DNA of 64,000 nucleotides. Origin: a virus. Lineage: Duplodnaviria > Heunggongvirae > Uroviricota > Caudoviricetes. Shown in pieces: positions 4,237 through 63,682 of the stretch; position 1 is the first letter of the stretch, and every line of letters begins with the position of its first letter. The notes below the pieces were generated by a model, which saw only the letters and a list, made by a program, of their open reading frames with translations, ran no database searches and was not told the origin of the DNA. Where the stretch lies: IMG/VR virus record IMGVR_UViG_3300032050_000069. The stretch is one strand, 5' to 3'. The position numbers and the translations under genes were made by a program.

Positions 4237-4972
4237 TTTCCTTCATAATAATAAGAATCACAAAGAATTAAATCAACTTTGGAATAATTCCACACCATTT
4301 CCTAATTTAGAATTTAAGAATTTTTTGAGTGATGAAATGGTAGTTTCGATGAAAAACGAAATTACAGATTCTTATAGAAAGCATAACCATTTACTCAAAA
4401 ACTTTACCCGAAATGGTTCTCATATGGTTGAGTTATGTGAAGCGGGTGATGTTTGCCCAATAGCACATCAACTTATTGGGGATTTACATTCAAAGTATTT
4501 TATAGATTGGTTGGAAAGAGTTACGGGAATAGATGGATTGATACCCGATCCGTGGCTTGTAGGAGCATCTTATATGAGATGTTATAGAGGTGATTCATTG
4601 CAAGTCCATTCTGATTTTAATTGGAATGAAAAGCTAAAACTTCATAGAAAATTAACATTAGTAATTTACCTAAATCCTGAATGGGAAGAAAATTGGAATG
4701 GTGATATACAATTGTGGGATAAAGATAGAACACACTGCGTTCAAAAATACTATCCTACTAATGGAAACCTCGTTTTATGGGAGTATTCCAAATACGCTTT
4801 TCATGGACACCCACATCCACTAAATTGCCCAGAACACATAACAAGAGATGGAATTAGATTATTTTATTATATATCTGATGCTGAACACAAATCAGATGAC
4901 CCTCCACACCGTTCACTTTATTGGTTCGATGAAAAAACTAAAGAACCTTTCGATAAAAAGAAATCCTTTTAA
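4223..4972 (+). CDS. possible 2OG-Fe(II) oxygenase-like protein
   Basis: LQVHSDF (HxD) and downstream His residues spaced as in the double-stranded beta-helix facial triad. Weak motif-only call. Confidence 0.3.
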   Translation: MIITDFLHNNKNHKELNQLWNNSTPFPNLEFKNFLSDEMVVSMKNEITDSYRKHNHLLKNFTRNGSHMVELCEAGDVCPIAHQLIGDLHSKYFIDWLERVTGIDGLIPDPWLVGASYMRCYRGDSLQVHSDFNWNEKLKLHRKLTLVIYLNPEWEENWNGDIQLWDKDRTHCVQKYYPTNGNLVLWEYSKYAFHGHPHPLNCPEHITRDGIRLFYYISDAEHKSDDPPHRSLYWFDEKTKEPFDKKKSF

Positions 4973-55028: not shown

Positions 55029-55075
55029 AAAAGCTTGGAAGTTTGGAAAAACTTTCTTATATTTGAAGAATAATA
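55028..55075 (+). promoter_or_regulatory. promoter cassette copy 1 (GCTTGGAA ... TTCTTATATTTG)
   Basis: First of four about 45-nt cassettes repeated at 55246-55293, 55400-55437, 55497-55537. Confidence 0.45.
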
Positions 55076-55245
55076 AAATAAGTTCTTTAAAATAGCAGGC
55101 GGGAGGTGAGGTATCTCGTTGGTCTCATAAGCCAAATTAACTAGGTTCGATTCCTAGGCGTTGCAACAAATCTACACTACTAGATTTTTGTGAGAGTAGT
55201 ATTCAGACGGTATCCTTAACAGGGCTTGGATGAGGTTCACAAAAA
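55076..55245 (+). ncRNA. small RNA 1 with isolated tRNA-like T-arm
   Basis: CTAGG-TTCGATT-CCTAG T-arm-like hairpin, but no foldable acceptor/anticodon arms. Downstream ACTACT...AGTAGT hairpin. Lies between promoter cassettes 1 and 2. Confidence 0.3.
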
Positions 55246-55278
55246 AAATTACAAAAATGCTTGAAACTTTGAAAAAAC

Positions 55279-55291
55279 TTCCGTATATTTG
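55279..55291 (+). promoter_or_regulatory. class-I promoter motif TTCCGTATATTTG (cassette copy 2)
   Basis: Preceded by ATGCTTGAAACTTTG -33-like element. Confidence 0.45.
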
Positions 55292-55307
55292 TAATAACAA
55301 AATGAGA

Positions 55308-55400
55308 TAGTGGTTGAAGCCAACATCTAATAAAACCGAATGTGTAACTACCCGGCGCGTGGTAGGATAAAGCCGGACACCACTACTTCATTTTGTTAAA
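55308..55400 (+). ncRNA. small structured RNA 2
   Basis: Nested hairpins: AGTGGT...ACCACT, GTTG-aagc-CAAC, CTACC-cggcgcgt-GGTAG. Ends in a T-rich stretch. No ORF. Confidence 0.35.
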
Positions 55401-55424
55401 AAAGATTTGGAAATACGAAAAAAG

Positions 55425-55437
55425 TTTCGTATATTTG
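55425..55437 (+). promoter_or_regulatory. class-I promoter motif TTTCGTATATTTG (cassette copy 3)
   Basis: Preceded by GATTTGGAAATACG. Confidence 0.45.
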
Positions 55438-55449
55438 TTAAAGTTTGAA

Positions 55450-55500
55450 ACTTATAGGTGATGAAAGATACTCGGTTTCAAATGGAAAAAAAAGTTGTTA
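55450..55500 (+). ncRNA. short hairpin RNA 3
   Basis: TTTGAAAC ... GTTTCAAA 8-bp stem followed by an A-rich tail. Confidence 0.25.
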
Positions 55501-55524
55501 AAATGCTTGGAAATTAAAAAAAAC

Positions 55525-55537
55525 TTCCGTATATTTG
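55525..55537 (+). promoter_or_regulatory. class-I promoter motif TTCCGTATATTTG (cassette copy 4)
   Basis: Preceded by ATGCTTGGAAATT. Drives the large structured region. Confidence 0.45.
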
Positions 55538-55559
55538 TAACAACAAAGAAAAGTTCTTT

Positions 55560-56790
55560 AAATTATTGAAACTAATTTCTATATAGTAACTTTGTGTTAC
55601 ATAATAGAGTGGCCGCATATGGTCGTTAAATAAACTTCGAAAGAAGGATAAAGTGAATCGGTTTGGTTTAATCGATTTGCGGCTCCTCCCCCGTAAGGGA
55701 GATGAGCTCGAGTATGCAAGTGAGGTATCACAAATGCTTAGTATCTGAGGGTAACACTTTAGGAGAGGAGTAGAGGTGACTGGGCAAGTGTAGATTGTTC
55801 AGTTGAGGTAGGAATACCAATAAGAATAACTCATAGAATTAATGCAAGAAGTAAAGACTTAATCTCTCTTTATCATTGCGTGATTCAATACCAAAGTTAT
55901 CTTAAAATCAAATTAGGGAAACCTTTTGAGATAAGATAGTGTACAGGTGGTGCTGTTACCATCCTTTTATAGAGTGTACCAACACCTATAAATGAAGATG
56001 ACTTAAAGTATGACGATAGGGATATCGTATCGGGTAGTAAAGTATTCCGTTGTTCAAAAGATAACGGAGCTTAAGGCAAACCACTACCTGAAACCATCTA
56101 CAAACCAAACTCATTTTTACTTCGGTGTAAAAACTATAAATAAAAATAAGAAAAAGAGTTTGCCAGTTACATCCGAAAGGTGTCTACATAGTAGTGAGTT
56201 GTTCACTGCCACAGACCTCCTCAAGGGGAATGTGATTCATTTGAAAGGTTTCTAACACCGCAAGTGTGAATCTGCTCGGCAGAGTAGAAGAAAATGAGTA
56301 TGATGAGAGTAAGATGTAACTCTAAGATTGGTTGGCTATACCAACCGACATTGAATTGGTACTTCTCAAAAGGAAGTGGAAACGAAAGGAAACAAATAAT
56401 CTTTCAAAAGCTGGTTCACAATATGGAGTATTCTCATCCTTATTTTATTATCATAATGGTTAATGTTGGTTCGATTCCAATGATGATAGCTTCGTAGTGG
56501 TTTCCGGCAGAAAGTTAGATGTATCTTCTAGACAACTGAAAGTTCCACTTTAATAAAAAATGAAAAAATGTATGATGGTATGGTTTTCCGTAGGGGATTT
56601 TCGCCTTAAACAATCTCAACAAAGCGAATTTAATTGATGGTAAAAACGGCTGTAGCTAGGCCTTTTGAAAGAACCACCCTACAAATCTTTCATTTTTATG
56701 AGTAACTTGTCGAGGCGGGTATTAACCAGAGCATGACTTGGATGGAGTATTTTGAAGACCGGTTACTTATTTTTTAGCTAAATTGATTTA
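55560..56790 (+). ncRNA. large GC-enriched structured non-coding RNA candidate (about 1.2 kb)
   Basis: No credible ORF. The 81-aa and 67-aa ORFs inside have no start context and arise because local GC is much higher than the flanks. Dense local stems: CTCCC-ccgtaa-GGGAG, GGTAGT...TCCGTT-gttcaaaagat-AACGGA...ACTACC, GGTTGG-ctata-CCAACC. Sits directly upstream of the tRNA array and directly downstream of a promoter cassette. Confidence 0.4.
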
Positions 56791-57054: not shown

Positions 57055-57126
57055 GTTGGTGTGGCGCAGTGGTAGCGCAGTAGACTGTTAATCTATTGGT
57101 CGTAGGTTCGAATCCTACCATCAACG
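57055..57126 (+). tRNA. tRNA-Asn (anticodon GTT)
   Basis: Cloverleaf folded by hand: acceptor gttggtg/catcaac, D GCGC-agtggta-GCGC, anticodon stem gtaga/tctat loop ctGTTaa, T gtagg-ttcgaat-cctac. Confidence 0.7.
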
Positions 57127-57157
57127 CAAGAAAGGTTCTTTGACATTGTGGGAAAAT

Positions 57158-57231
57158 AGAAGATTAGCTCAGTTGGTTAGAGCATTTGGTTTACATCCAA
57201 AGGGTCATAGGTTCGAATCCTATATCTTCTA
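57158..57231 (+). tRNA. tRNA-Val (anticodon TAC)
   Basis: Acceptor agaagat/atcttct, anticodon stem tttgg/ccaaa loop ttTACat, T atagg-ttcgaat-cctat. Confidence 0.7.
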
Positions 57232-57239
57232 CAATTTAT

Positions 57240-57321
57240 GCCTGTATCGCATAGTGGCAATTGCTGGAGACTGTAAATCTCCTCTCTTCGGAGTTCGGTG
57301 GTTCGAGTCCATCTGCAGGCA
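57240..57321 (+). tRNA. tRNA-Tyr (anticodon GTA), type II
   Basis: Acceptor gcctgta/tgcaggc, anticodon stem ggaga/tctcc loop ctGTAaa, long variable arm ctc-ttcg-gag, T ggtgg-ttcgagt-ccatc. Confidence 0.65.
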
Positions 57322-57326
57322 CAATT

Positions 57327-57399
57327 GGAGCTTTCGTATAGCTGGTGCGTACGTCCGCCTGAAGAGCGGAAGGATGCGGTTCGATTCCTCAAGGCTCCA
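57327..57399 (+). tRNA. tRNA-Phe (anticodon GAA)
   Basis: Acceptor ggagctt/aggctcc, anticodon stem tccgc/gcgga loop ctGAAga, T-loop ttcgatt. Confidence 0.65.
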
Positions 57400-57406
57400 C
57401 ACAATG

Positions 57407-57481
57407 AACTCGTAGCTCAGTTGGTTAGAGCTTCTCACTTTTAATGAGAAAGTCAATGGTTCGAGTCCATTCGGGTTCACA
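57407..57481 (+). tRNA. tRNA-Lys (anticodon TTT)
   Basis: Acceptor gaactcg/cgggttc, D tagctcagttggttagagc, anticodon stem tctca/tgaga loop ctTTTaa, T aatgg-ttcgagt-ccatt. Confidence 0.7.
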
Positions 57482-57539
57482 AAATAGTTTACTTCGGCAA
57501 CGTTCTATACAAAAATCGGAGCCGGCCATATAGATGTAG

Positions 57540-57615
57540 AGGAGGCAGGTTTATCTCGCCACTTTTGGGAAGTGGAACACGTTGGTTCGAATCCAACCAT
57601 CTATACAAAATTGGA
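57540..57615 (+). tRNA. tRNA-Pro (anticodon TGG)
   Basis: Acceptor atagatg/catctat, anticodon stem ccact/agtgg loop ttTGGga, T gttgg-ttcgaat-ccaac. Enlarged D-loop. Confidence 0.55.
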
Positions 57616-57621
57616 ATATAA

Positions 57622-57695
57622 CTCAATTGGTTAGAGTGTCATCCTGATACGGTGAAAGTTGAAAGTTCGAGTCTTTCTATTCCAACAAATAAGGT
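57622..57695 (+). tRNA. tRNA-Ile (anticodon GAT)
   Basis: Acceptor tggaata/tattcca, anticodon stem tcatc/ggtga loop ctGATac, T gaaag-ttcgagt-ctttc. Confidence 0.65.
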
Positions 57696-57776
57696 AATCG
57701 TTCCCAGAGTTGGTGTGGCCACATCCGGACTCAAAAAAAGTAAAGTTACAGATGGATGCGTAACGCCTTATTAACT

Positions 57777-57848
57777 ATCTCCTTGGTGCAATGGCTAGCA
57801 TACCGGTCTCCAAAACCGTTGATAAAAGTTCGAATCTTTTAGGGGGTG
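57777..57848 (+). tRNA. tRNA-Trp (anticodon CCA)
   Basis: Acceptor atctcct/agggggt (two G-U), D gtgc-aatggcta-gcat, anticodon loop ctCCAaa, T aaaag-ttcgaat-ctttt. Confidence 0.55.
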
Positions 57849-58051
57849 CTAAATGAATAAAACTATGAAAATAAACTTTGATTTAAAAAACAATTATCCA
57901 AGTATAGAATTTTGCTACAACAATAAATGTGTTATTATAAGGTATTGGGGTGGATTAAAATTTGATAAAGTTGTTATTTACGGCGGTGAATAATATAAAT
58001 GTAAAACTATGAAACAATTATTTGACAAGCATTAGTTAAACCTAATGCAAA

Positions 58052-58243
58052 ATGAAAGAAGAAAGAGTAAAACAAATGAATCAAATCTACAACTATTGTA
58101 TGATTTGTAACAAACGAAATGGAAGTTGGTATTATGATTGTCATCCATCATCGTTCAGAGCAAAAAGACATGGTAGTGGTAAGGTTGTAAGAGTAAGAGA
58201 GTGTAGAAGTTGGAAACACAGCCGAAAGACTCAATGGAAATAA
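58052..58243 (+). CDS. small basic Cys/His-rich protein (possible Zn ribbon) embedded in the tRNA array
   Basis: 63 aa. CMICNKRNGSWYYDCH ... CRSWKH. Confidence 0.3.
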   Translation: MKEERVKQMNQIYNYCMICNKRNGSWYYDCHPSSFRAKRHGSGKVVRVRECRSWKHSRKTQWK

Positions 58244-58247
58244 CGAT

Positions 58248-58319
58248 GGCTCTTTGGTGTAACGGATAGCACACAACACTACGGATGTTGGAGTAAGGGT
58301 TCGAATCCTTTAGGGGCTA
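58248..58319 (+). tRNA. tRNA-Arg (anticodon ACG)
   Basis: Anticodon stem caaca/tgttg loop ctACGga, T aaggg-ttcgaat-ccttt, acceptor ggctctt/aggggct with G-U pairs. Confidence 0.6.
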
Positions 58320-58325
58320 CAATAG

Positions 58326-58396
58326 GGTGGATTGTCCGAGAGGCGAGGAGGTGGTCTGCAAAACCATTCACATTGGTTCAAATCCAATATCCACCT
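58326..58396 (+). tRNA. tRNA-Cys (anticodon GCA)
   Basis: Acceptor ggtggat/atccacc, anticodon stem gtggt/accat loop ctGCAaa, T attgg-ttcaaat-ccaat. Confidence 0.6.
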
Positions 58397-58401
58397 CAAA
58401 C

Positions 58402-58471
58402 TGCGTGGCTTAGTGGAAAAGAGTTATCTCTCATAAGGATGACCAATTGAGTTCAAACCTCAAACACGCAA
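58402..58471 (+). tRNA. tRNA-Met-like (anticodon CAT), atypical D-arm
   Basis: Acceptor tgcgtgg/acacgca (one mismatch), anticodon stem tatct/ggatg (two G-U) loop ctCATaa, T ttgag-ttcaaac-ctcaa. Could be elongator Met, initiator, or Ile2. Confidence 0.45.
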
Positions 58472-58479
58472 CTTAATAT

Positions 58480-58551
58480 GGTGTTTATTGTGTAAGGGTA
58501 GCACGACAGATTGTGGTTCTGTTAGTATGGGTTCGAATCCCATTATTCACC
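58480..58551 (+). tRNA. tRNA-His (anticodon GTG) with extra 5' G(-1)
   Basis: Anticodon stem acaga/tctgt loop ttGTGgt, T atggg-ttcgaat-cccat, discriminator C and an additional 5' G consistent with His identity. Acceptor has two T-T mismatches. Confidence 0.5.
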
Positions 58552-58616
58552 CCCAACCCCGAGTTCTGGAGCTGGTATCTCCTCTTACCCGAATTGAGAT
58601 TAAAAACTACCAAAAT

Positions 58617-58702
58617 AGAGAGTTACCCAAGTTGGTGAAGGGGCCTGTTTGCTAAACAGGTAGGATGTAAAAGTCGCAAGAGTTCGAACCTCTTACTCTC
58701 TA
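58617..58702 (+). tRNA. tRNA-Ser (anticodon GCT), type II
   Basis: Acceptor agagagt/actctct, anticodon stem cctgt/acagg loop ttGCTaa, about 17-nt variable arm, T aagag-ttcgaac-ctctt. Confidence 0.6.
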
Positions 58703-58710
58703 CTCAAAAT

Positions 58711-58785
58711 GCCCGTATGGCGGAATTGGCATACGCAATGGTCTTAGAAGCCATCCAATTGAAGGTTCGAATCCTTCTATGGGCA
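58711..58785 (+). tRNA. tRNA with anticodon TAG (Leu decoding) but type-I (short variable arm) architecture
   Basis: Acceptor gcccgta/tatgggc, anticodon stem atggt/gccat loop ctTAGaa, variable region only 6 nt, T gaagg-ttcgaat-ccttc. Confidence 0.5.
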
Positions 58786-58806
58786 CAAAACTAAAAAAGT
58801 AATAAT

Positions 58807-59262
58807 ATGGAATACAAACGGCTATACGATGGAGAAAAAGTTAGTTTGATTGATTATCTAAATGATTATCTTCAAACGAATAATGATGTAGATATACTTA
58901 TCGGATGTGATTCACAAAACTATGTTGATAAGACAATATATGCCATTGTAGTTGCCTTATATCATAGAGGTAAAGGTGCGCATGTTCTTTATAGAAGATG
59001 GAATACACAAAGAGAAAGAGTAAGGGCAACCAGATTATTAAATGAAGTTTGGTATGCTATTGAAGTTGCTGAAAGTATTAAAAATGCAGGATTACCGAAG
59101 GTTAAATGGATTGATATTGATTTGAATCCTGATCCTCGATATAAATCAAACGAAGTGTTCAGACAAGCAGTTGGTATGGTGGAAGGAATGGGGTATGCGG
59201 TTAGATATAAAACATTAGGCCCAATTGCTACATACGCTGCTGACCATATCGTAAAGGGTTAA
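58807..59262 (+). CDS. hypothetical protein
   Basis: 151-aa ORF between tRNA sub-clusters. Confidence 0.3.
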   Translation: MEYKRLYDGEKVSLIDYLNDYLQTNNDVDILIGCDSQNYVDKTIYAIVVALYHRGKGAHVLYRRWNTQRERVRATRLLNEVWYAIEVAESIKNAGLPKVKWIDIDLNPDPRYKSNEVFRQAVGMVEGMGYAVRYKTLGPIATYAADHIVKG

Positions 59263-59288
59263 ACTTTTTTTGGATATATCAGATATTT

Positions 59289-59300
59289 TTCGTATATTTG
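59289..59300 (+). promoter_or_regulatory. class-I promoter motif TTCGTATATTTG
   Basis: 6 nt upstream of ATG 59307 (possibly leaderless or near-leaderless). Confidence 0.45.
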
Positions 59301-59306
59301 TAAACG

Positions 59307-59729
59307 ATGAAGATAATCAATTGGGATAAGTTAAGGTATAAGTTTATTATATTAGCAGGTATGGATTTGGCTATTGATACAACATATACCACCGAAGATG
59401 AATTGGGTAAAACTACCTATTGCTTTACTATGTGTGATAGTGATTCGGTTGGGGAAACTTTTATAGAAGTGTTTCTTAAAGAAGGTGAGTTTGATGAATT
59501 TTTAATGAGTGTTAATTTACCTCAACAACAAATCACTCCGAATATAAAAAGAGTATTTAGAAGAAAAGACCTTTTAGATATAAATGAATTTATGAAACAA
59601 ATGGGAAGCGAATTAGTTAAAAATAGTATGGTAAATAGTTATTTAAATTTTTTAAGTGGTCTTAAACAAACTAAATTAAAAGCATCTAATAATACATTTG
59701 CATCCCATTCAATAAATTTACCATTTTAA
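59307..59729 (+). CDS. hypothetical protein
   Basis: 140-aa ORF. Confidence 0.3.
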   Translation: MKIINWDKLRYKFIILAGMDLAIDTTYTTEDELGKTTYCFTMCDSDSVGETFIEVFLKEGEFDEFLMSVNLPQQQITPNIKRVFRRKDLLDINEFMKQMGSELVKNSMVNSYLNFLSGLKQTKLKASNNTFASHSINLPF

Positions 59730-59730
59730 T

Positions 59731-59802
59731 GCTCGGTTGGACTAGGGGTTAGGTCACATCCCTTTCACGGATGTAGCACGGGTTCGAATCCCGTACCGAG
59801 TA
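59731..59802 (+). tRNA. tRNA-Glu (anticodon TTC)
   Basis: Acceptor gctcggt/accgagt, anticodon stem catcc/ggatg loop ctTTCac, T acggg-ttcgaat-cccgt. Confidence 0.65.
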
Positions 59803-59810
59803 CATAATAG

Positions 59811-59884
59811 GCCTCCGTAGCTCAGTTGGCCAGAGCTCCTGATTTGTAATCAGGTTGTCGTTGGTTCGAATCCGACCGGAGGCT
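59811..59884 (+). tRNA. tRNA-Thr (anticodon TGT)
   Basis: Acceptor gcctccg/cggaggc perfect, D gctc-agttggcca-gagc, anticodon stem cctga/tcagg loop ttTGTaa. Confidence 0.7.
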
Positions 59885-59889
59885 CAAAA

Positions 59890-59961
59890 GGTCTATTAGT
59901 GAAGTAGTTATCATATCACACTGTCACTGTGAAGTAAAGGGAGCGTAACCCTTATAGACCG
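59890..59961 (+). tRNA. tRNA-Asp-like (anticodon GTC) with non-canonical T-loop AGCGTAA
   Basis: Acceptor ggtctat/atagacc perfect, anticodon stem tcaca/tgtga loop ctGTCac. T-stem aaggg/ccctt but loop agcgtaa lacks the T54-Psi55-C56 consensus. Confidence 0.45.
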
Positions 59962-59965
59962 CAAT

Positions 59966-60039
<74 letters not shown>

Positions 60040-60053
60040 CAAACAAATAAAAT

Positions 60054-60509
60054 ATGAAAATAACAATTACGAAATTATTGATTTTGTTTATCATAACAAT
60101 TGCCTTTATTCCACATAATAATGAAGTGGTAAAAAGTGAAGAGCAAATTGTAGATGACATAATTGAAAGGAAAAGACCAGATTATCATTTGGTAACGGCG
60201 ACGACATATTCAATTACCGAAGAAGAAACTGATTCAACTCCATTAATTACCGCAAGTGGTTACAAATTGGATAGTATAAATCCAAAGAAACAAAAGGTAA
60301 TAGCAGTTAGTAGAGACCTTAAACGAAAGTTAAAATTTGGGGAAAAAGTAAGAATTAAAGGAGCAGGTAATTTAGATGGTATTTACTATGTAAGGGATTT
60401 GATGAATAAACGATTCCGAAATAAGATAGATATACTTATTAATCCTGATGAAGATGGGAATAAGTTTACGAAAGTAAAATTGTATGCTGTAAATAAAATT
60501 TTAAAATAG
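60054..60509 (+). CDS. secreted or membrane-anchored hypothetical protein
   Basis: Hydrophobic N-terminus LLILFIITIAFIP. 151 aa. Confidence 0.3.
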   Translation: MKITITKLLILFIITIAFIPHNNEVVKSEEQIVDDIIERKRPDYHLVTATTYSITEEETDSTPLITASGYKLDSINPKKQKVIAVSRDLKRKLKFGEKVRIKGAGNLDGIYYVRDLMNKRFRNKIDILINPDEDGNKFTKVKLYAVNKILK

Positions 60510-60529
60510 CTTGTTTTCTTTCAATCGTT

Positions 60530-60541
60530 TTCGTACATTTG
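60530..60541 (+). promoter_or_regulatory. class-I promoter motif variant TTCGTACATTTG
   Basis: 11 nt upstream of tRNA-Leu(TAA). Confidence 0.4.
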
Positions 60542-60552
60542 ATTTAAATAAT

Positions 60553-60636
60553 GCCGGAGTGTTGGAATGGTAGACAAGATTGACTTAAAATCAATTGAGC
60601 TGAAAGCTCGTGTGGGTTCGAGTCCCACCTCTGGTA
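60553..60636 (+). tRNA. tRNA-Leu (anticodon TAA), type II
   Basis: Acceptor gccggag/ctctggt, anticodon stem attga/tcaat loop ctTAAaa, variable arm gagc-tgaaa-gctc, T gtggg-ttcgagt-cccac. Confidence 0.65.
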
Positions 60637-60648
60637 CGTGAATTTTAA

Positions 60649-60722
60649 GGGGGATTAGCTCAGTTGGCTAGAGCGTTTGATTTGCATTCAAAAGGCCACA
60701 GGTTCGACTCCTGTATTCTCCA
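60649..60722 (+). tRNA. tRNA-Ala (anticodon TGC)
   Basis: Acceptor gggggat/attctcc (G-U pairs), anticodon stem tttga/tcaaa loop ttTGCat, T acagg-ttcgact-cctgt. Confidence 0.65.
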
Positions 60723-60737
60723 CCAAAATAAAACAAT

Positions 60738-60929
60738 ATGAAAAGATTTACAATTACAGGCGTAAGAACAATCGATGAGTATGTTACTTACACCGTTGAA
60801 GCAGAAACCGAAGATGATGCAATTGAATTGGTAGAGAGTGGTGAGATTGAAGATAATGGTGATTTCTGGCAAAAGGAAACATCAGGTGGTGAGGATTTCA
60901 CTATAACTGAAGTAGAAGATATTGATTAA
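60738..60929 (+). CDS. small acidic hypothetical protein
   Basis: 63-aa ORF, highly acidic C-terminus. Confidence 0.3.
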   Translation: MKRFTITGVRTIDEYVTYTVEAETEDDAIELVESGEIEDNGDFWQKETSGGEDFTITEVEDID

Positions 60930-60937
60930 AGATATAT

Positions 60938-61056
60938 GCCGGTGTGGCGGAATGAATGGGTTTGAATTCGAATAGAAACCATTAGACGTCCTGAATTCTA
61001 GATAGGGGGTGTATCCGAAATGGACATCGTATAGGTAACCAATCCTTTCACCGGCA
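60938..61056 (+). ncRNA. unknown structured small RNA (about 119 nt) closed by a tRNA-like acceptor stem
   Basis: Perfect 7-bp closing stem gccggtg/caccggc followed by a discriminator-like A. Internal hairpin aatgGTTTgaattcgaatagAAACcatt. Long-range gacgtcc/ggacatc stem. No anticodon or T-arm could be folded. Confidence 0.35.
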
Positions 61057-61115
61057 CCTTTATTTATCGTTGAAAGAAAAGATAATTCATTTTATCATCA
61101 GATTAAACGATGTTA

Positions 61116-61189
61116 GGGCTTGTAGCTCATTCGGTTAGAGCAACGCACTCATAATGCGGAGGTAATAGGTTCGATTCCTATCTGGCCCA
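61116..61189 (+). tRNA. tRNA-Met (anticodon CAT), second copy (initiator or elongator or Ile2 unresolved)
   Basis: Acceptor gggcttg/ctggccc, D tagctcattcggttagagca, anticodon loop ctCATaa, T atagg-ttcgatt-cctat. Confidence 0.6.
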
Positions 61190-61203
61190 CCAAACAAACA
61201 AAA

Positions 61204-61275
61204 GCGGATGTCGTATAATGGTTATTACTCCATCCTTCCAAGTTGGAGACGTAGGTTCGATTCCTATCATCCGCT
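61204..61275 (+). tRNA. tRNA-Gly (anticodon TCC)
   Basis: Acceptor gcggatg/catccgc perfect, anticodon stem ccatc/gttgg (one T-T) loop ctTCCaa, T gtagg-ttcgatt-cctat. Confidence 0.55.
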
Positions 61276-61410
61276 CAAGTGGGCCATTGTGGATAGGCCA
61301 GAAGAAAAATAGATGTTTTTCGTTCACAGAAACTCAAGTACCCATACCGCTAACGATGGGCTAAGTAAGATACAATTCCGTACTGCGGGGAGTAGAATGC
61401 TTGAGATTAT
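61276..61410 (+). ncRNA. structured small RNA candidate between tRNA-Gly and tRNA-Gln
   Basis: GGCC-attgtggata-GGCC hairpin. Then a roughly 90-nt element closed by ctcaag/cttgag containing hairpins cccat-accgctaacg-atggg and tact-gcgggg-agta. Confidence 0.3.
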
Positions 61411-61481
61411 TGCCCGATGGTGTAGCGGTAGCACAAATGTTTTTGGTGCATTTAGGGTTGGTTCGAATCCAGCTCGGGTAA
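61411..61481 (+). tRNA. tRNA-Gln (anticodon TTG)
   Basis: Acceptor tgcccga/tcgggta (U1-A72 as in bacterial tRNA-Gln), D gtgt-agcggta-gcac, anticodon stem aatgt/gcatt loop ttTTGgt, T gttgg-ttcgaat-ccagc. Confidence 0.6.
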
Positions 61482-61555
61482 CATTTTTATAAACGATTGA
61501 TTTCCAATGGCTTATTTTCTCCCTTTTTCTTGGAAAATTCAACAATTTTTACTAT

Positions 61556-62438: not shown

Positions 62439-63032
62439 ATGAAAGTAATTTTTTTAGACCACGATGGTGTGATATGTTTATCAACTGAATGGGGTAGTAG
62501 GCATAAAAAACAAAGAGAGTTTGGCCGTAAGATGAGCCAGGGTATTAAAGAGATGCCCGTTGAAATGCGGTTTGATAATTTTAACAAGAAAGCGGTTAAG
62601 ATACTAAATGAAATTTTAGAAGAAACTGATGCTGAAATTGTTATATCATCTGATTGGAAAAGATGGGCAAATGTTGAGGAGATGGGTGAGTATTATGAAT
62701 CAAAGGGAATCAAAAAGAAACCGATTGCCTTTACTCCTAATTTGGGTAATTGTACTTGGTATATTGATGCTTATCCAGCGGGATTCATTTGGAGTAGAGC
62801 TTGGGAATTGGAACAAACTAGAACTATTGAAATTAAACAATACCTAAACGATCATCCTGAAATTACACATTGGGTTTCAGTTGATGATTTGAGAATGGGG
62901 AAGAGTGGAATGGATTATTCAGTTCCATATGAGCATGAATGGGGGTTGGATAACTTTGTAGAAACACCGCGTAGCACCGAAGGTATTAAACAAACTGGAA
63001 TTAAAGAAAAGATACTAAACTTTTTAAAATGA
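62439..63032 (+). CDS. HAD-superfamily phosphatase
   Basis: MKVIFLDHDGVICL carries the DxDG(T/V) HAD motif I. Confidence 0.5.
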   Translation: MKVIFLDHDGVICLSTEWGSRHKKQREFGRKMSQGIKEMPVEMRFDNFNKKAVKILNEILEETDAEIVISSDWKRWANVEEMGEYYESKGIKKKPIAFTPNLGNCTWYIDAYPAGFIWSRAWELEQTRTIEIKQYLNDHPEITHWVSVDDLRMGKSGMDYSVPYEHEWGLDNFVETPRSTEGIKQTGIKEKILNFLK

Positions 63033-63682
63033 GAATAGCATTAAATAAAGGGCAAAGATTATGGTTTACAAGTGATACCCATTATAACCACGCTAATATA
63101 TGTAGTGCAACAACAAAATGGAAAGACCCGGTAACTTTAAGGGAATTCAAAACATTAGAACATATGAATTCACATTTAGTTGGGAACATTAATGAAGTTG
63201 TAAGACAAGATGATATATTAATCCATTTGGGCGATTGGAGTTTTGGTGGATTTGAACAAATACAAAAGTTTAGAGAACAAATTGTATGTAATAACATTCA
63301 TATCATTACAGGTAATCACGACCATCATATTGAAAACAATAGAGATAATTGTCAAACATTATTTAATTCGGTAAACAAATATGTTGAATTAAATGTGAAG
63401 TGGAATGTTGGAACTCCTCTAATGGGTGAACAAAACTTTGTATTAATGCACTTCCCAATTGCCAGTTGGAACAATATGGCAAGAGGGGCAATTCATTTGC
63501 ATGGGCATGTTCATTTCAATCCTAATTTGAGATTGCAAGTGGGTAAGATGATGGATGTTGGCTGTGATGGTAATATGTTATATCCTATTCAAATGCAAGA
63601 AGTATTGAGGATAATGGAGAACAGGCCGGTCAAATCTATATTCAATTTTGACCATCACGAGATTGTAGAAAATTATAAATAA
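63029..63682 (+). CDS. calcineurin-like metallophosphoesterase
   Basis: ILIHLGDWSFGG, ITGNHDHH, GHVHFN motifs. Confidence 0.6.
   Translation: MRIALNKGQRLWFTSDTHYNHANICSATTKWKDPVTLREFKTLEHMNSHLVGNINEVVRQDDILIHLGDWSFGGFEQIQKFREQIVCNNIHIITGNHDHHIENNRDNCQTLFNSVNKYVELNVKWNVGTPLMGEQNFVLMHFPIASWNNMARGAIHLHGHVHFNPNLRLQVGKMMDVGCDGNMLYPIQMQEVLRIMENRPVKSIFNFDHHEIVENYK

Follow-up and report, generated by a model that had tools for sequence, protein, structure and literature searches.

The 64,000-nucleotide stretch of DNA analysed here in full (hereafter the window) comes from a virus of the class Caudoviricetes (IMG/VR record IMGVR_UViG_3300032050_000069) and carries a run of 22 tRNA genes at 57055-61482, all on the plus strand and together covering all 20 amino acids. 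Inside this run lies a 119-nt element (60938-61056, plus strand) that a preliminary description, made from the sequence alone, had singled out as a structured RNA resembling a remodelled tRNA gene. We found that this element belongs to a genuine and sizeable RNA family of large aquatic phages, apparently undescribed so far, whose members derive from tRNA-Leu but do not decode. The decisive feature, which is absent from the preliminary description, is a palindrome of six bases, subject to covariation, in what used to be the anticodon loop, and this hexamer most likely pairs two copies of the element RNA.

Homologues were gathered by exact-pattern scans of IMG/VR and of metagenome contigs, with the 5′ 17-mer of the element and then other conserved segments as patterns. 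In IMG/VR the 17-mer brought up two kinds of sequence, namely ordinary tRNA-Leu genes that share it exactly and true homologues of the element. The family comprises at least 161 copies and at least 119 distinct sequences, with lengths of 93-134 nt and with parent contigs in IMG/VR of up to 251 kb. Every collected copy lies within a phage tRNA array and on the tRNA strand: all 1513 tRNAs found within 3 kb of the copies share their strand. The nearest upstream tRNA is at most 10 nt away in 88 of 146 copies, with spacers down to about 5 nt, and the downstream neighbour is tRNA-Met(CAU) in 118 copies.

A blastn search of 50,697 GenBank phage records returned no homologue of the element, and no family of Rfam 15 matches it, either at the gathering threshold or at E <= 10. 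The search of bacterial genomes gave a single match, on a 558-nt contig binned into an Algoriphagus metagenome-assembled genome, which argues that the element is not a host gene. We found no published description of the family in the literature; it may figure, unnamed, among the roughly 10,000 viral candidate RNAs catalogued in 2023 (PMC10690425).

Next we examined the fold, taking pair counts for a tRNA-like cloverleaf on an alignment (A2) of all 119 distinct sequences. In this alignment 93.2% of the cloverleaf cells are paired; the corresponding values are 84.5% after shuffling of columns and 40-53% after partners have been displaced by 1-3 columns. Changes on both sides are seen in 15 pairs. 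The acceptor, D, variable and T stems also come out of an independent RNAalifold prediction, in which the anticodon region stays unpaired. The 7-bp acceptor stem with its discriminator base, the D stem, the T stem and a long variable arm are all found in cloverleaf order, and covariation supports the prediction that the element folds as a type-II tRNA-Leu cloverleaf with a remodelled D loop, anticodon arm and T loop. With a family covariance model built from the alignment (R1), the window copy reaches 109.4 bits (E = 7e-26), and apart from it the model matches just the two tRNA-Leu genes of the window, which align end to end at 35.3 and 21.3 bits. Because these next-best matches are tRNA-Leu genes, we take the element for a derivative of class II tRNA-Leu, which is its closest relative by descent. 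The remodelling of a tRNA gene suspected in the preliminary description is thus borne out, here as a type-II tRNA-Leu origin, with compensation between paired positions in the helices of the acceptor, the T arm, the variable arm and the D insert, and the covariation check across related phages, with 93% of structure cells paired, speaks against the drifting pseudogene that had been its alternative.

The perfect tRNA-like closing stem followed by A, seen earlier in the single sequence, stands: 99.8% of the acceptor cells are paired, and three of the seven pairs change on both sides (GC/AU, AU/UA, GC/UA). The 5′ end had also been rightly likened to tRNA-Leu, its first 17 nt being identical to the starts of many genuine tRNA-Leu genes; within it, the segment from U8 into the D loop (TGGCGGAA) is invariant in all members and identical to genuine tRNA-Leu. 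The 3-bp D stem is 100% paired and has no pair that changes on both sides; at pair 10-25, 104 sequences have GU and 15 have GC. The D loop keeps G13-A14-A15 and A-G-A21, and its G18-G19 is replaced by a hairpin, or by UUU/AAU. In the window this hairpin (AATGGGTTT/GAAACCATT) has eight pairs and one G.A mismatch; the earlier claim of a perfect hairpin was right as to its presence and wrong as to its perfection, one G having been omitted. The D inserts amount to 64 distinct sequences, in which the stems covary and the loops are kept, the loop classes being UGUACA, UUCGAA (that of the window), UGGCCA/GGCC, GUAC, CUGACGAG and a few more; the insert is missing from three members. One class of inserts has the conserved CUGACGAG loop motif in place of a palindrome, and another has a CCCUUUGGG mini-hairpin (L074, L075, L076, L095, L124, L168, L176).

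The outer stem of the variable arm is 89.6% paired with three covarying pairs (GU57/GC34/CG17/AU10; UA84/AU18/GC4), and its inner stem is 100% paired with one covarying pair. Because this arm covaries, a long-range gacgtcc/ggacatc helix proposed earlier is contradicted: GACGT belongs to the D loop and D stem, and GGACATC is the 3′ half of the variable-arm hairpin. The earlier statement that a T arm is missing does not hold either. The T arm reads ATAGG / TAACCAAT / CCTTT in the DNA of the window and its stem covaries strongly across the family, with 89.4% of cells paired and four of the five pairs changing on both sides (GC71/AU47; GC81/AU38), and with a U.U mismatch at the second pair in 62 of 119 members, the window copy included. 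The T loop has 8 nt, with the consensus UA..CA.. and without the TΨC motif.

At the 3′ end, the base after ACC is T in 105, G in 11 and C in 3 of the distinct sequences, and never A; the earlier search patterns, which did not require GGCACC, gave the same ACC and non-A end. Among the 971 distinct tRNAs of the member arrays (L006-L201), 101 (10%) encode CCA and six (0.6%) encode CC and a non-A base. About 64% of these tRNAs have CA(A/T) after the discriminator base, a trailer that may be a lineage-specific 3′ processing signal.

A phage contig nearly identical to the window (L129, 95-98% identity) carries its element copy at 4545-4654 on the minus strand. More than 250 nt downstream of the element are 100% identical to the window, whereas the element itself has paired substitutions in the variable and T stems and a different D insert, which places a mosaic boundary at the 3′ end of the element.

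Table. Positions in the window of the parts of the element and of the features around it.
Feature	Position	Strand	Remarks
Repeated promoter-like units	55035-55547	+	several units TTGGAA-17-TATATT, upstream of GOLLD
Marginal tRNA-like match	55095-55165		31.3 bits
Internal repeat	55241-55301 / 55487-55547		upstream of GOLLD
GOLLD RNA	56030-56440	+	Rfam RF02032, 303 bits
tRNA-Leu(UAG)	58711-58786	+	76 nt, 5-nt variable loop
RNaseH_like protein (Pfam PF04308)	58807-59262	+	recurs in 36 member loci
Acceptor stem, 5′ strand	60938-60944	+	GCCGGUG; pairs with 61049-61055
U8 G9, D stem 5′ strand, D-loop 5′ part	60945-60954	+	D stem strand GCG at 60947-60949; D-loop part GAAUG
Hairpin inserted in D loop	60955-60983	+	at the G18-G19 position; loop GAAUUCGAAUAG with palindromes GAAUUC and UUCGAA
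D-loop 3′ part, D stem 3′ strand	60984-60989	+	AGA and CGU; AGACG invariant
Former anticodon arm	60990-61007	+	short stem CCU/GGG and G.A pair, large loop
Palindromic hexamer	60997-61002	+	UCUAGA; proposed kissing-loop dimerisation site
Variable arm	61008-61028	+	outer stem GGUGU/ACAUC, inner stem CC/GG, loop GAAAU
T arm	61031-61048	+	AUAGG / UAACCAAU / CCUUU; 5-bp stem, non-canonical 8-nt loop
Acceptor stem, 3′ strand and 3′ end	61049-61058	+	CACCGGC (61049-61055), discriminator A (61056), encoded CC (61057-61058)
Spacer, element to tRNA-Met(CAU)	61059-61115	+	76-100% identity in at least 40 loci
Sigma-70-like site	61070-61098		TTGAAA-17-TATCAT, within the conserved spacer
Second conserved non-tRNA RNA	61277-61410	+	between tRNA-Gly and tRNA-Gln; conserved in at least 35 loci
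3′ module of the second RNA	61333-61405		closing stem CTCAAG/CTTGAG, hairpins CCCAT/ATGGG and TCC/GGA
HAD_SAK_2 protein	62439-63032	+	of the 'Swiss army knife' RNA-repair proteins; recurs in 19 member loci
Metallophosphatase / calcineurin-like phosphoesterase	63029-63682	+	recurs in 15 member loci

The former anticodon arm consists of two solid pairs (CG in 99, UG in 11) and a variable third or fourth pair (G.A, U.U or C-G), with a loop of 9-14 nt, mostly 11-13 nt. We found neither the 5-bp stem nor the 7-nt loop (U33, anticodon, purine 37) of a canonical anticodon arm, and the canonical elbow is likewise missing, there being no G18-G19 and no 7-nt T loop (T54-Ψ55-C56...A58). The loop of the former anticodon arm presents the hexamer, for which UCUAGA, UCCGGA, CCUAGG, ACUAGU and UUCGAA occur as the five principal perfect palindromes among the members, sometimes within otherwise identical flanks, with UCUAGG as a U.G wobble intermediate between UCUAGA and CCUAGG. 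The base 3′ of the hexamer is a purine in 96 of 119 sequences.

For the hexamer, positions 1-6, 2-5 and 3-4 were scored as pairs on a MAFFT alignment made without reference to palindromy. We found that 91.3% of these cells self-pair (1-6 UA84/CG10/AU6/UG3; 2-5 CG97/UA15/UG4; 3-4 UA83/CG21/GU3) and that all three self-pairs change on both sides, with 55 double-changed cells compared to 11.8±2.9 in shuffles (0 of 500 shuffles). Furthermore, the loop contains a Watson-Crick palindrome of at least 6 nt in 92 of 107 members (shuffles: mean 18.5, maximum 31), and the hexamer changes its state at least 32 times on a tree built without this arm. In the 64-kb window CTAG is 4-fold under-represented (45 observed, 181 expected), and TCTAGA is found 4 times with 20.7 expected from base composition. 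Palindromic hexamers overall number 755 in the window, about 55% of the 1370 expected.

Collectively, these results indicate that a self-complementary hexamer in an apical loop is maintained by compensatory change. Pair 3-4 joins adjacent nucleotides and pair 2-5 would enclose just two, so that neither can form within one molecule; because the covariation cannot be intramolecular, a kissing-loop or duplex homodimer is its best reading. A crude cofold estimate, in which the isolated arms favour the dimer by -7.8 kcal/mol and shuffled interiors by -5.0, lends this weak support.

Several observations weigh on the other side. A 6-bp A/U-rich kissing helix is weak by itself (-4 to -9 kcal/mol). In three members (L110, L119 and L152) the palindromic loop is replaced by a plain GUAA- or GUAG-capped hairpin, and about 10 further members keep just the CUAG core, so that self-pairing is not universal in the family. 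Single-sequence folding of the element is no better than that of shuffles (z = -0.45); the reality of the structure therefore cannot be established from this one sequence, and the support comes from the 119 homologues. These sequences are related and recombining, and the shuffle statistics overstate their independence. Finally, the later scan patterns demanded GGCACC and other family motifs, and invariance at those positions partly reflects the way in which the sequences were retrieved.

Taking these points into account, we consider it fairly probable that the element, as a whole, specifies a tRNA-Leu-derived, non-decoding, palindrome-paired homodimeric tRNA-like RNA that acts as a tRNA-Leu mimic. 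Under this hypothesis the element would be the gene for an RNA of about 119-121 nt which, from its position, would be co-transcribed with the surrounding phage tRNAs, freed at its 5′ end by RNase P and then trimmed at its 3′ end, possibly with addition of A. The leader 5′ of the element is ATAT in 87 of 119 sequences, and base -1 is U in most. The RNA would have retained the acceptor/T minihelix, the D stem, the core residues U8, A14, A21 and A73 and the long variable arm, and its decoding and canonical-elbow parts would have been replaced by a hairpin at G18-G19, an 8-mer T loop and a 2-3-bp anticodon stem presenting the palindrome. Two molecules would join via the hexamer as a kissing loop, which could convert to an extended duplex, giving the homodimer to which the covariation points. 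The weakest step comes last: the dimer would act in infection as a mimic of tRNA-Leu towards a tRNA-binding factor, for which a synthetase, a CCA or 3′-end enzyme and a tRNA-targeting nuclease or toxin are candidates. The retained A73, acceptor/T minihelix and tRNA-Leu core suggest such mimicry, and this role would fit the tRNA conflict suggested by the neighbouring RNA-repair genes described below.

A further-reaching possibility, to which we attach a low probability, is that the RNA is a self-assembling tRNA-shaped building block, bivalent through the anticodon-position hexamer and the D-insert palindrome (UGUACA, UUCGAA or UGGCCA). With its two loops at the two ends of the tRNA 'L', such an RNA could form chains, rings or cages beyond dimers. 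Conserved palindromes make up the D-insert loops of the three largest classes, and the bivalent reading draws on this recurrence of palindromes across mutually unalignable D-insert classes, and not on covariation. If true, nature would here have an equivalent of the tectoRNA polyhedra engineered from tRNA, encoded in the very phage tRNA islands that also hold the GOLLD nanocage RNA.

As the measured quantity is self-complementarity alone, the hexamer could instead be read by a symmetric (homodimeric) protein or by another RNA, the element RNA then working as a monomer that mimics tRNA or serves as a scaffold. Sequence conservation of the D-insert loops and of the loop nucleotides flanking the hexamer is what protein contacts would produce, and RNA-repair and RNase H-like genes are linked to the element. 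A sequence-specific protein, however, would not accept UCUAGA, UCCGGA, CCUAGG and UUCGAA alike where the flanks are otherwise identical, and an RNA partner complementary to the palindrome must bear the same palindrome; we hold this reading to be unlikely. In GOLLD, a linked RNA at the head of the tRNA island, we found no matching covarying site and no loop-loop complementarity to the element. Pairing of the element loops with GOLLD palindromes was rejected, TGTACA at -90 belonging to a GOLLD stem; the GOLLD +155 site was rejected as a partner, being neither kept palindromic nor tracking the D-insert class; and no GOLLD site follows the state of the anticodon-loop hexamer. Likewise, palindromes could act in the DNA, as operator, recombination or restriction-type sites or as cruciforms within a tRNA-like gene. 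In favour of this, every motif is a 6-bp palindrome of the classical DNA type, the D insert forms an inverted repeat that is nearly perfect, and a promoter-like site lies just downstream of the element, but the hexamer sequence varies freely while complementarity alone is kept, the TCTAGG (U.G) intermediate is neutral in RNA and breaks the DNA palindrome, and the hexamer always stands at the tip of an RNA arm in a covarying cloverleaf. A role in DNA is accordingly most improbable.

We regard as improbable, if somewhat less so, that the element is a decaying tRNA-Leu pseudogene, or a spacer kept as RNase P/RNase Z 'punctuation' in a polycistronic tRNA transcript. It does sit between tRNAs with the short spacers given above, its folding energy is unremarkable, and it keeps the acceptor/T minihelix, which is the minimal RNase P substrate. 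Compensatory changes, such as those between L129 and the window copy, nevertheless exclude decay, and across the 119 variants they preserve four helices together with several loop sequences; as for punctuation, the neighbouring tRNAs already provide processing sites, and conservation extends to the palindrome, the variable-arm loop and the D-insert loops, none of which processing needs. There is very little likelihood that the element still decodes as a functional tRNA of unusual form, such as an amber suppressor with anticodon CUA that inserts leucine (loop UUCUAGA) in phages that recode TAG. Recoding of stop codons is known from large phages, leucyl-tRNA synthetase uses A73 and does not read the anticodon, A73 is kept, and many member loops read U-U-CUA-G-A, with a U33-like U and a purine at 37. 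Against this, the anticodon stem has just 2-3 pairs and a loop of variable length, the would-be anticodon shifts among CUA, CCG and UCG while palindromy stays, three members have a 4-nt capped hairpin instead of the palindromic loop, and neither a TΨC loop nor G18-G19 is present. The amber suppressor in particular was rejected: genetic code 11 gives dense open reading frames (ORFs), TAG is a used stop that ends 9 of 75 long ORFs in the window, coding coverage hardly grows when TAG is read through, and the 'anticodon' varies. ARAGORN at default settings called 0 of 119 family sequences, and the Rfam tRNA model RF00005 gave no match at E <= 10, even for an insert-less member; an intron-containing tRNA was rejected as well, since ARAGORN with intron options finds nothing consistent.

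Linkage of the element to GOLLD is tight: GOLLD, 4.5 kb upstream of the element, was found in 42 element-family loci, and in 16 of the 23 loci having at least 5.5 kb of upstream sequence. On the flanks of the tRNA island are genes characteristic of RNA repair or processing, and these hint at a role of the island in conflicts over tRNA integrity. The sigma-70-like site lies in the conserved spacer 3′ of the element, and the element may therefore end one transcription unit. Upstream of GOLLD there are repeated promoter-like units, an internal repeat and a marginal tRNA-like match, and within the island tRNA-Leu(UAG) has a class-I-like shape, which is unusual for a bacterial-type tRNA-Leu. The window is weakly similar to the 630-640-kb uncultured phages LR756502 and LR745206, and PHROGs annotation of ten large window proteins gave almost nothing informative.

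A second structured RNA, which the preliminary description had pointed out nearby, is confirmed as conserved. Its 3′ module also holds a loop-loop pseudoknot, CCGC/GCGG; in 19 sequences this pseudoknot and the hairpin TCC/GGA are 100% paired, with two covarying pairs each. No Rfam family matches this RNA at E <= 10.

The element shows a tRNA gene repurposed by swapping the decoding and elbow modules alone. Its family offers at least 119 natural variants together with a testable prediction, the palindrome-dependent self-association of a tRNA-shaped RNA. Through the linkage to GOLLD and RNA-repair genes, the function of the element may bear on how large phages manage or protect their tRNA pool, and also on the joint action of the RNAs of phage 'tRNA islands'.

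Compared with bacterial-type class II tRNA-Leu, the element shares the 7-bp acceptor stem, U8, a 3-bp D stem GCG/CGY, A14, A21, the long variable arm, the 'GU' before a 5-bp T stem and A73, besides the first 17 nt. It differs in having no 5-bp anticodon stem or 7-nt loop, a hairpin for G18-G19, an 8-nt T loop without TΨC, and an encoded CC followed by a non-A base.

The preliminary description had also drawn an analogy to rnaC (139 nt) and rnaD (119 nt) of phage T4, which are species 1 and 2. As to placement the analogy is sound: these are small stable RNAs within a tRNA cluster, on the tRNA strand and beside tRNA genes, with tRNA-like 3′ parts. It does not extend to homology. With filters off, R1 found no match to rnaC or rnaD in T4 66000-76000, its matches being only to tRNA-Leu, Ser, Thr, Arg and Gly, so that the element family is not homologous to them and the likeness is positional only. 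Furthermore, the T arm of rnaC is still the canonical GGTTCGAATCC and a CCA end is encoded in rnaD, whereas the element has neither, and in rnaC and rnaD no cloverleaf with a palindromic loop was seen. We know of no function ever assigned to small non-tRNA RNAs of phage tRNA clusters such as T4 species 1 and 2.

Other tRNA mimics, such as tmRNA and the Y RNA-like RNAs, carry an mRNA-like or a Ro-binding module, and the element has neither. These mimics (the tRNA-like domain of tmRNA, and YrlA/Y RNA-like RNAs) are non-decoding RNAs of bacteria and phages in which the acceptor/T-arm module is kept (PMC4201824). They keep a canonical T loop, whereas that of the element is non-canonical. ARAGORN with the -m option found no tmRNA, and Rfam at E <= 10 gave no relevant tmRNA or Y-RNA match to the element.

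Functional RNA homodimers are rare in nature (PMC7357161). In human mitochondrial tRNA-Leu(UUR), the mutation A3243G (A14G) creates a six-nucleotide palindrome in the D stem-loop and thereby a homodimer with reduced aminoacylation (PMC7357161). That dimer is a pathogenic accident of one mutation, whereas the palindromes of the element are kept by selection across a family, and the palindrome of the element is located in the loop at the anticodon position, possibly also in the D-loop insert, instead of the D stem-loop. In HIV-1 DIS and the oskar 3′ untranslated region, a six-nucleotide palindrome with flanking purines in an apical loop forms a kissing or extended duplex dimer, and function depends on complementarity rather than on sequence (PMC7357161). 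These loops are parts of long molecules, viral genomes or mRNAs, and have tasks in packaging or transport. In the element the loop takes the place of the anticodon loop in a small tRNA-shaped RNA belonging to a DNA phage, and it is covariation alone that points to dimerisation. An apical six-base palindrome with flanking purines, in which complementarity is kept over sequence, characteristically marks kissing-loop dimerisation sites such as HIV-1 DIS, and the pairing of two copies of the element RNA would accordingly be the most economical explanation of the hexamer.

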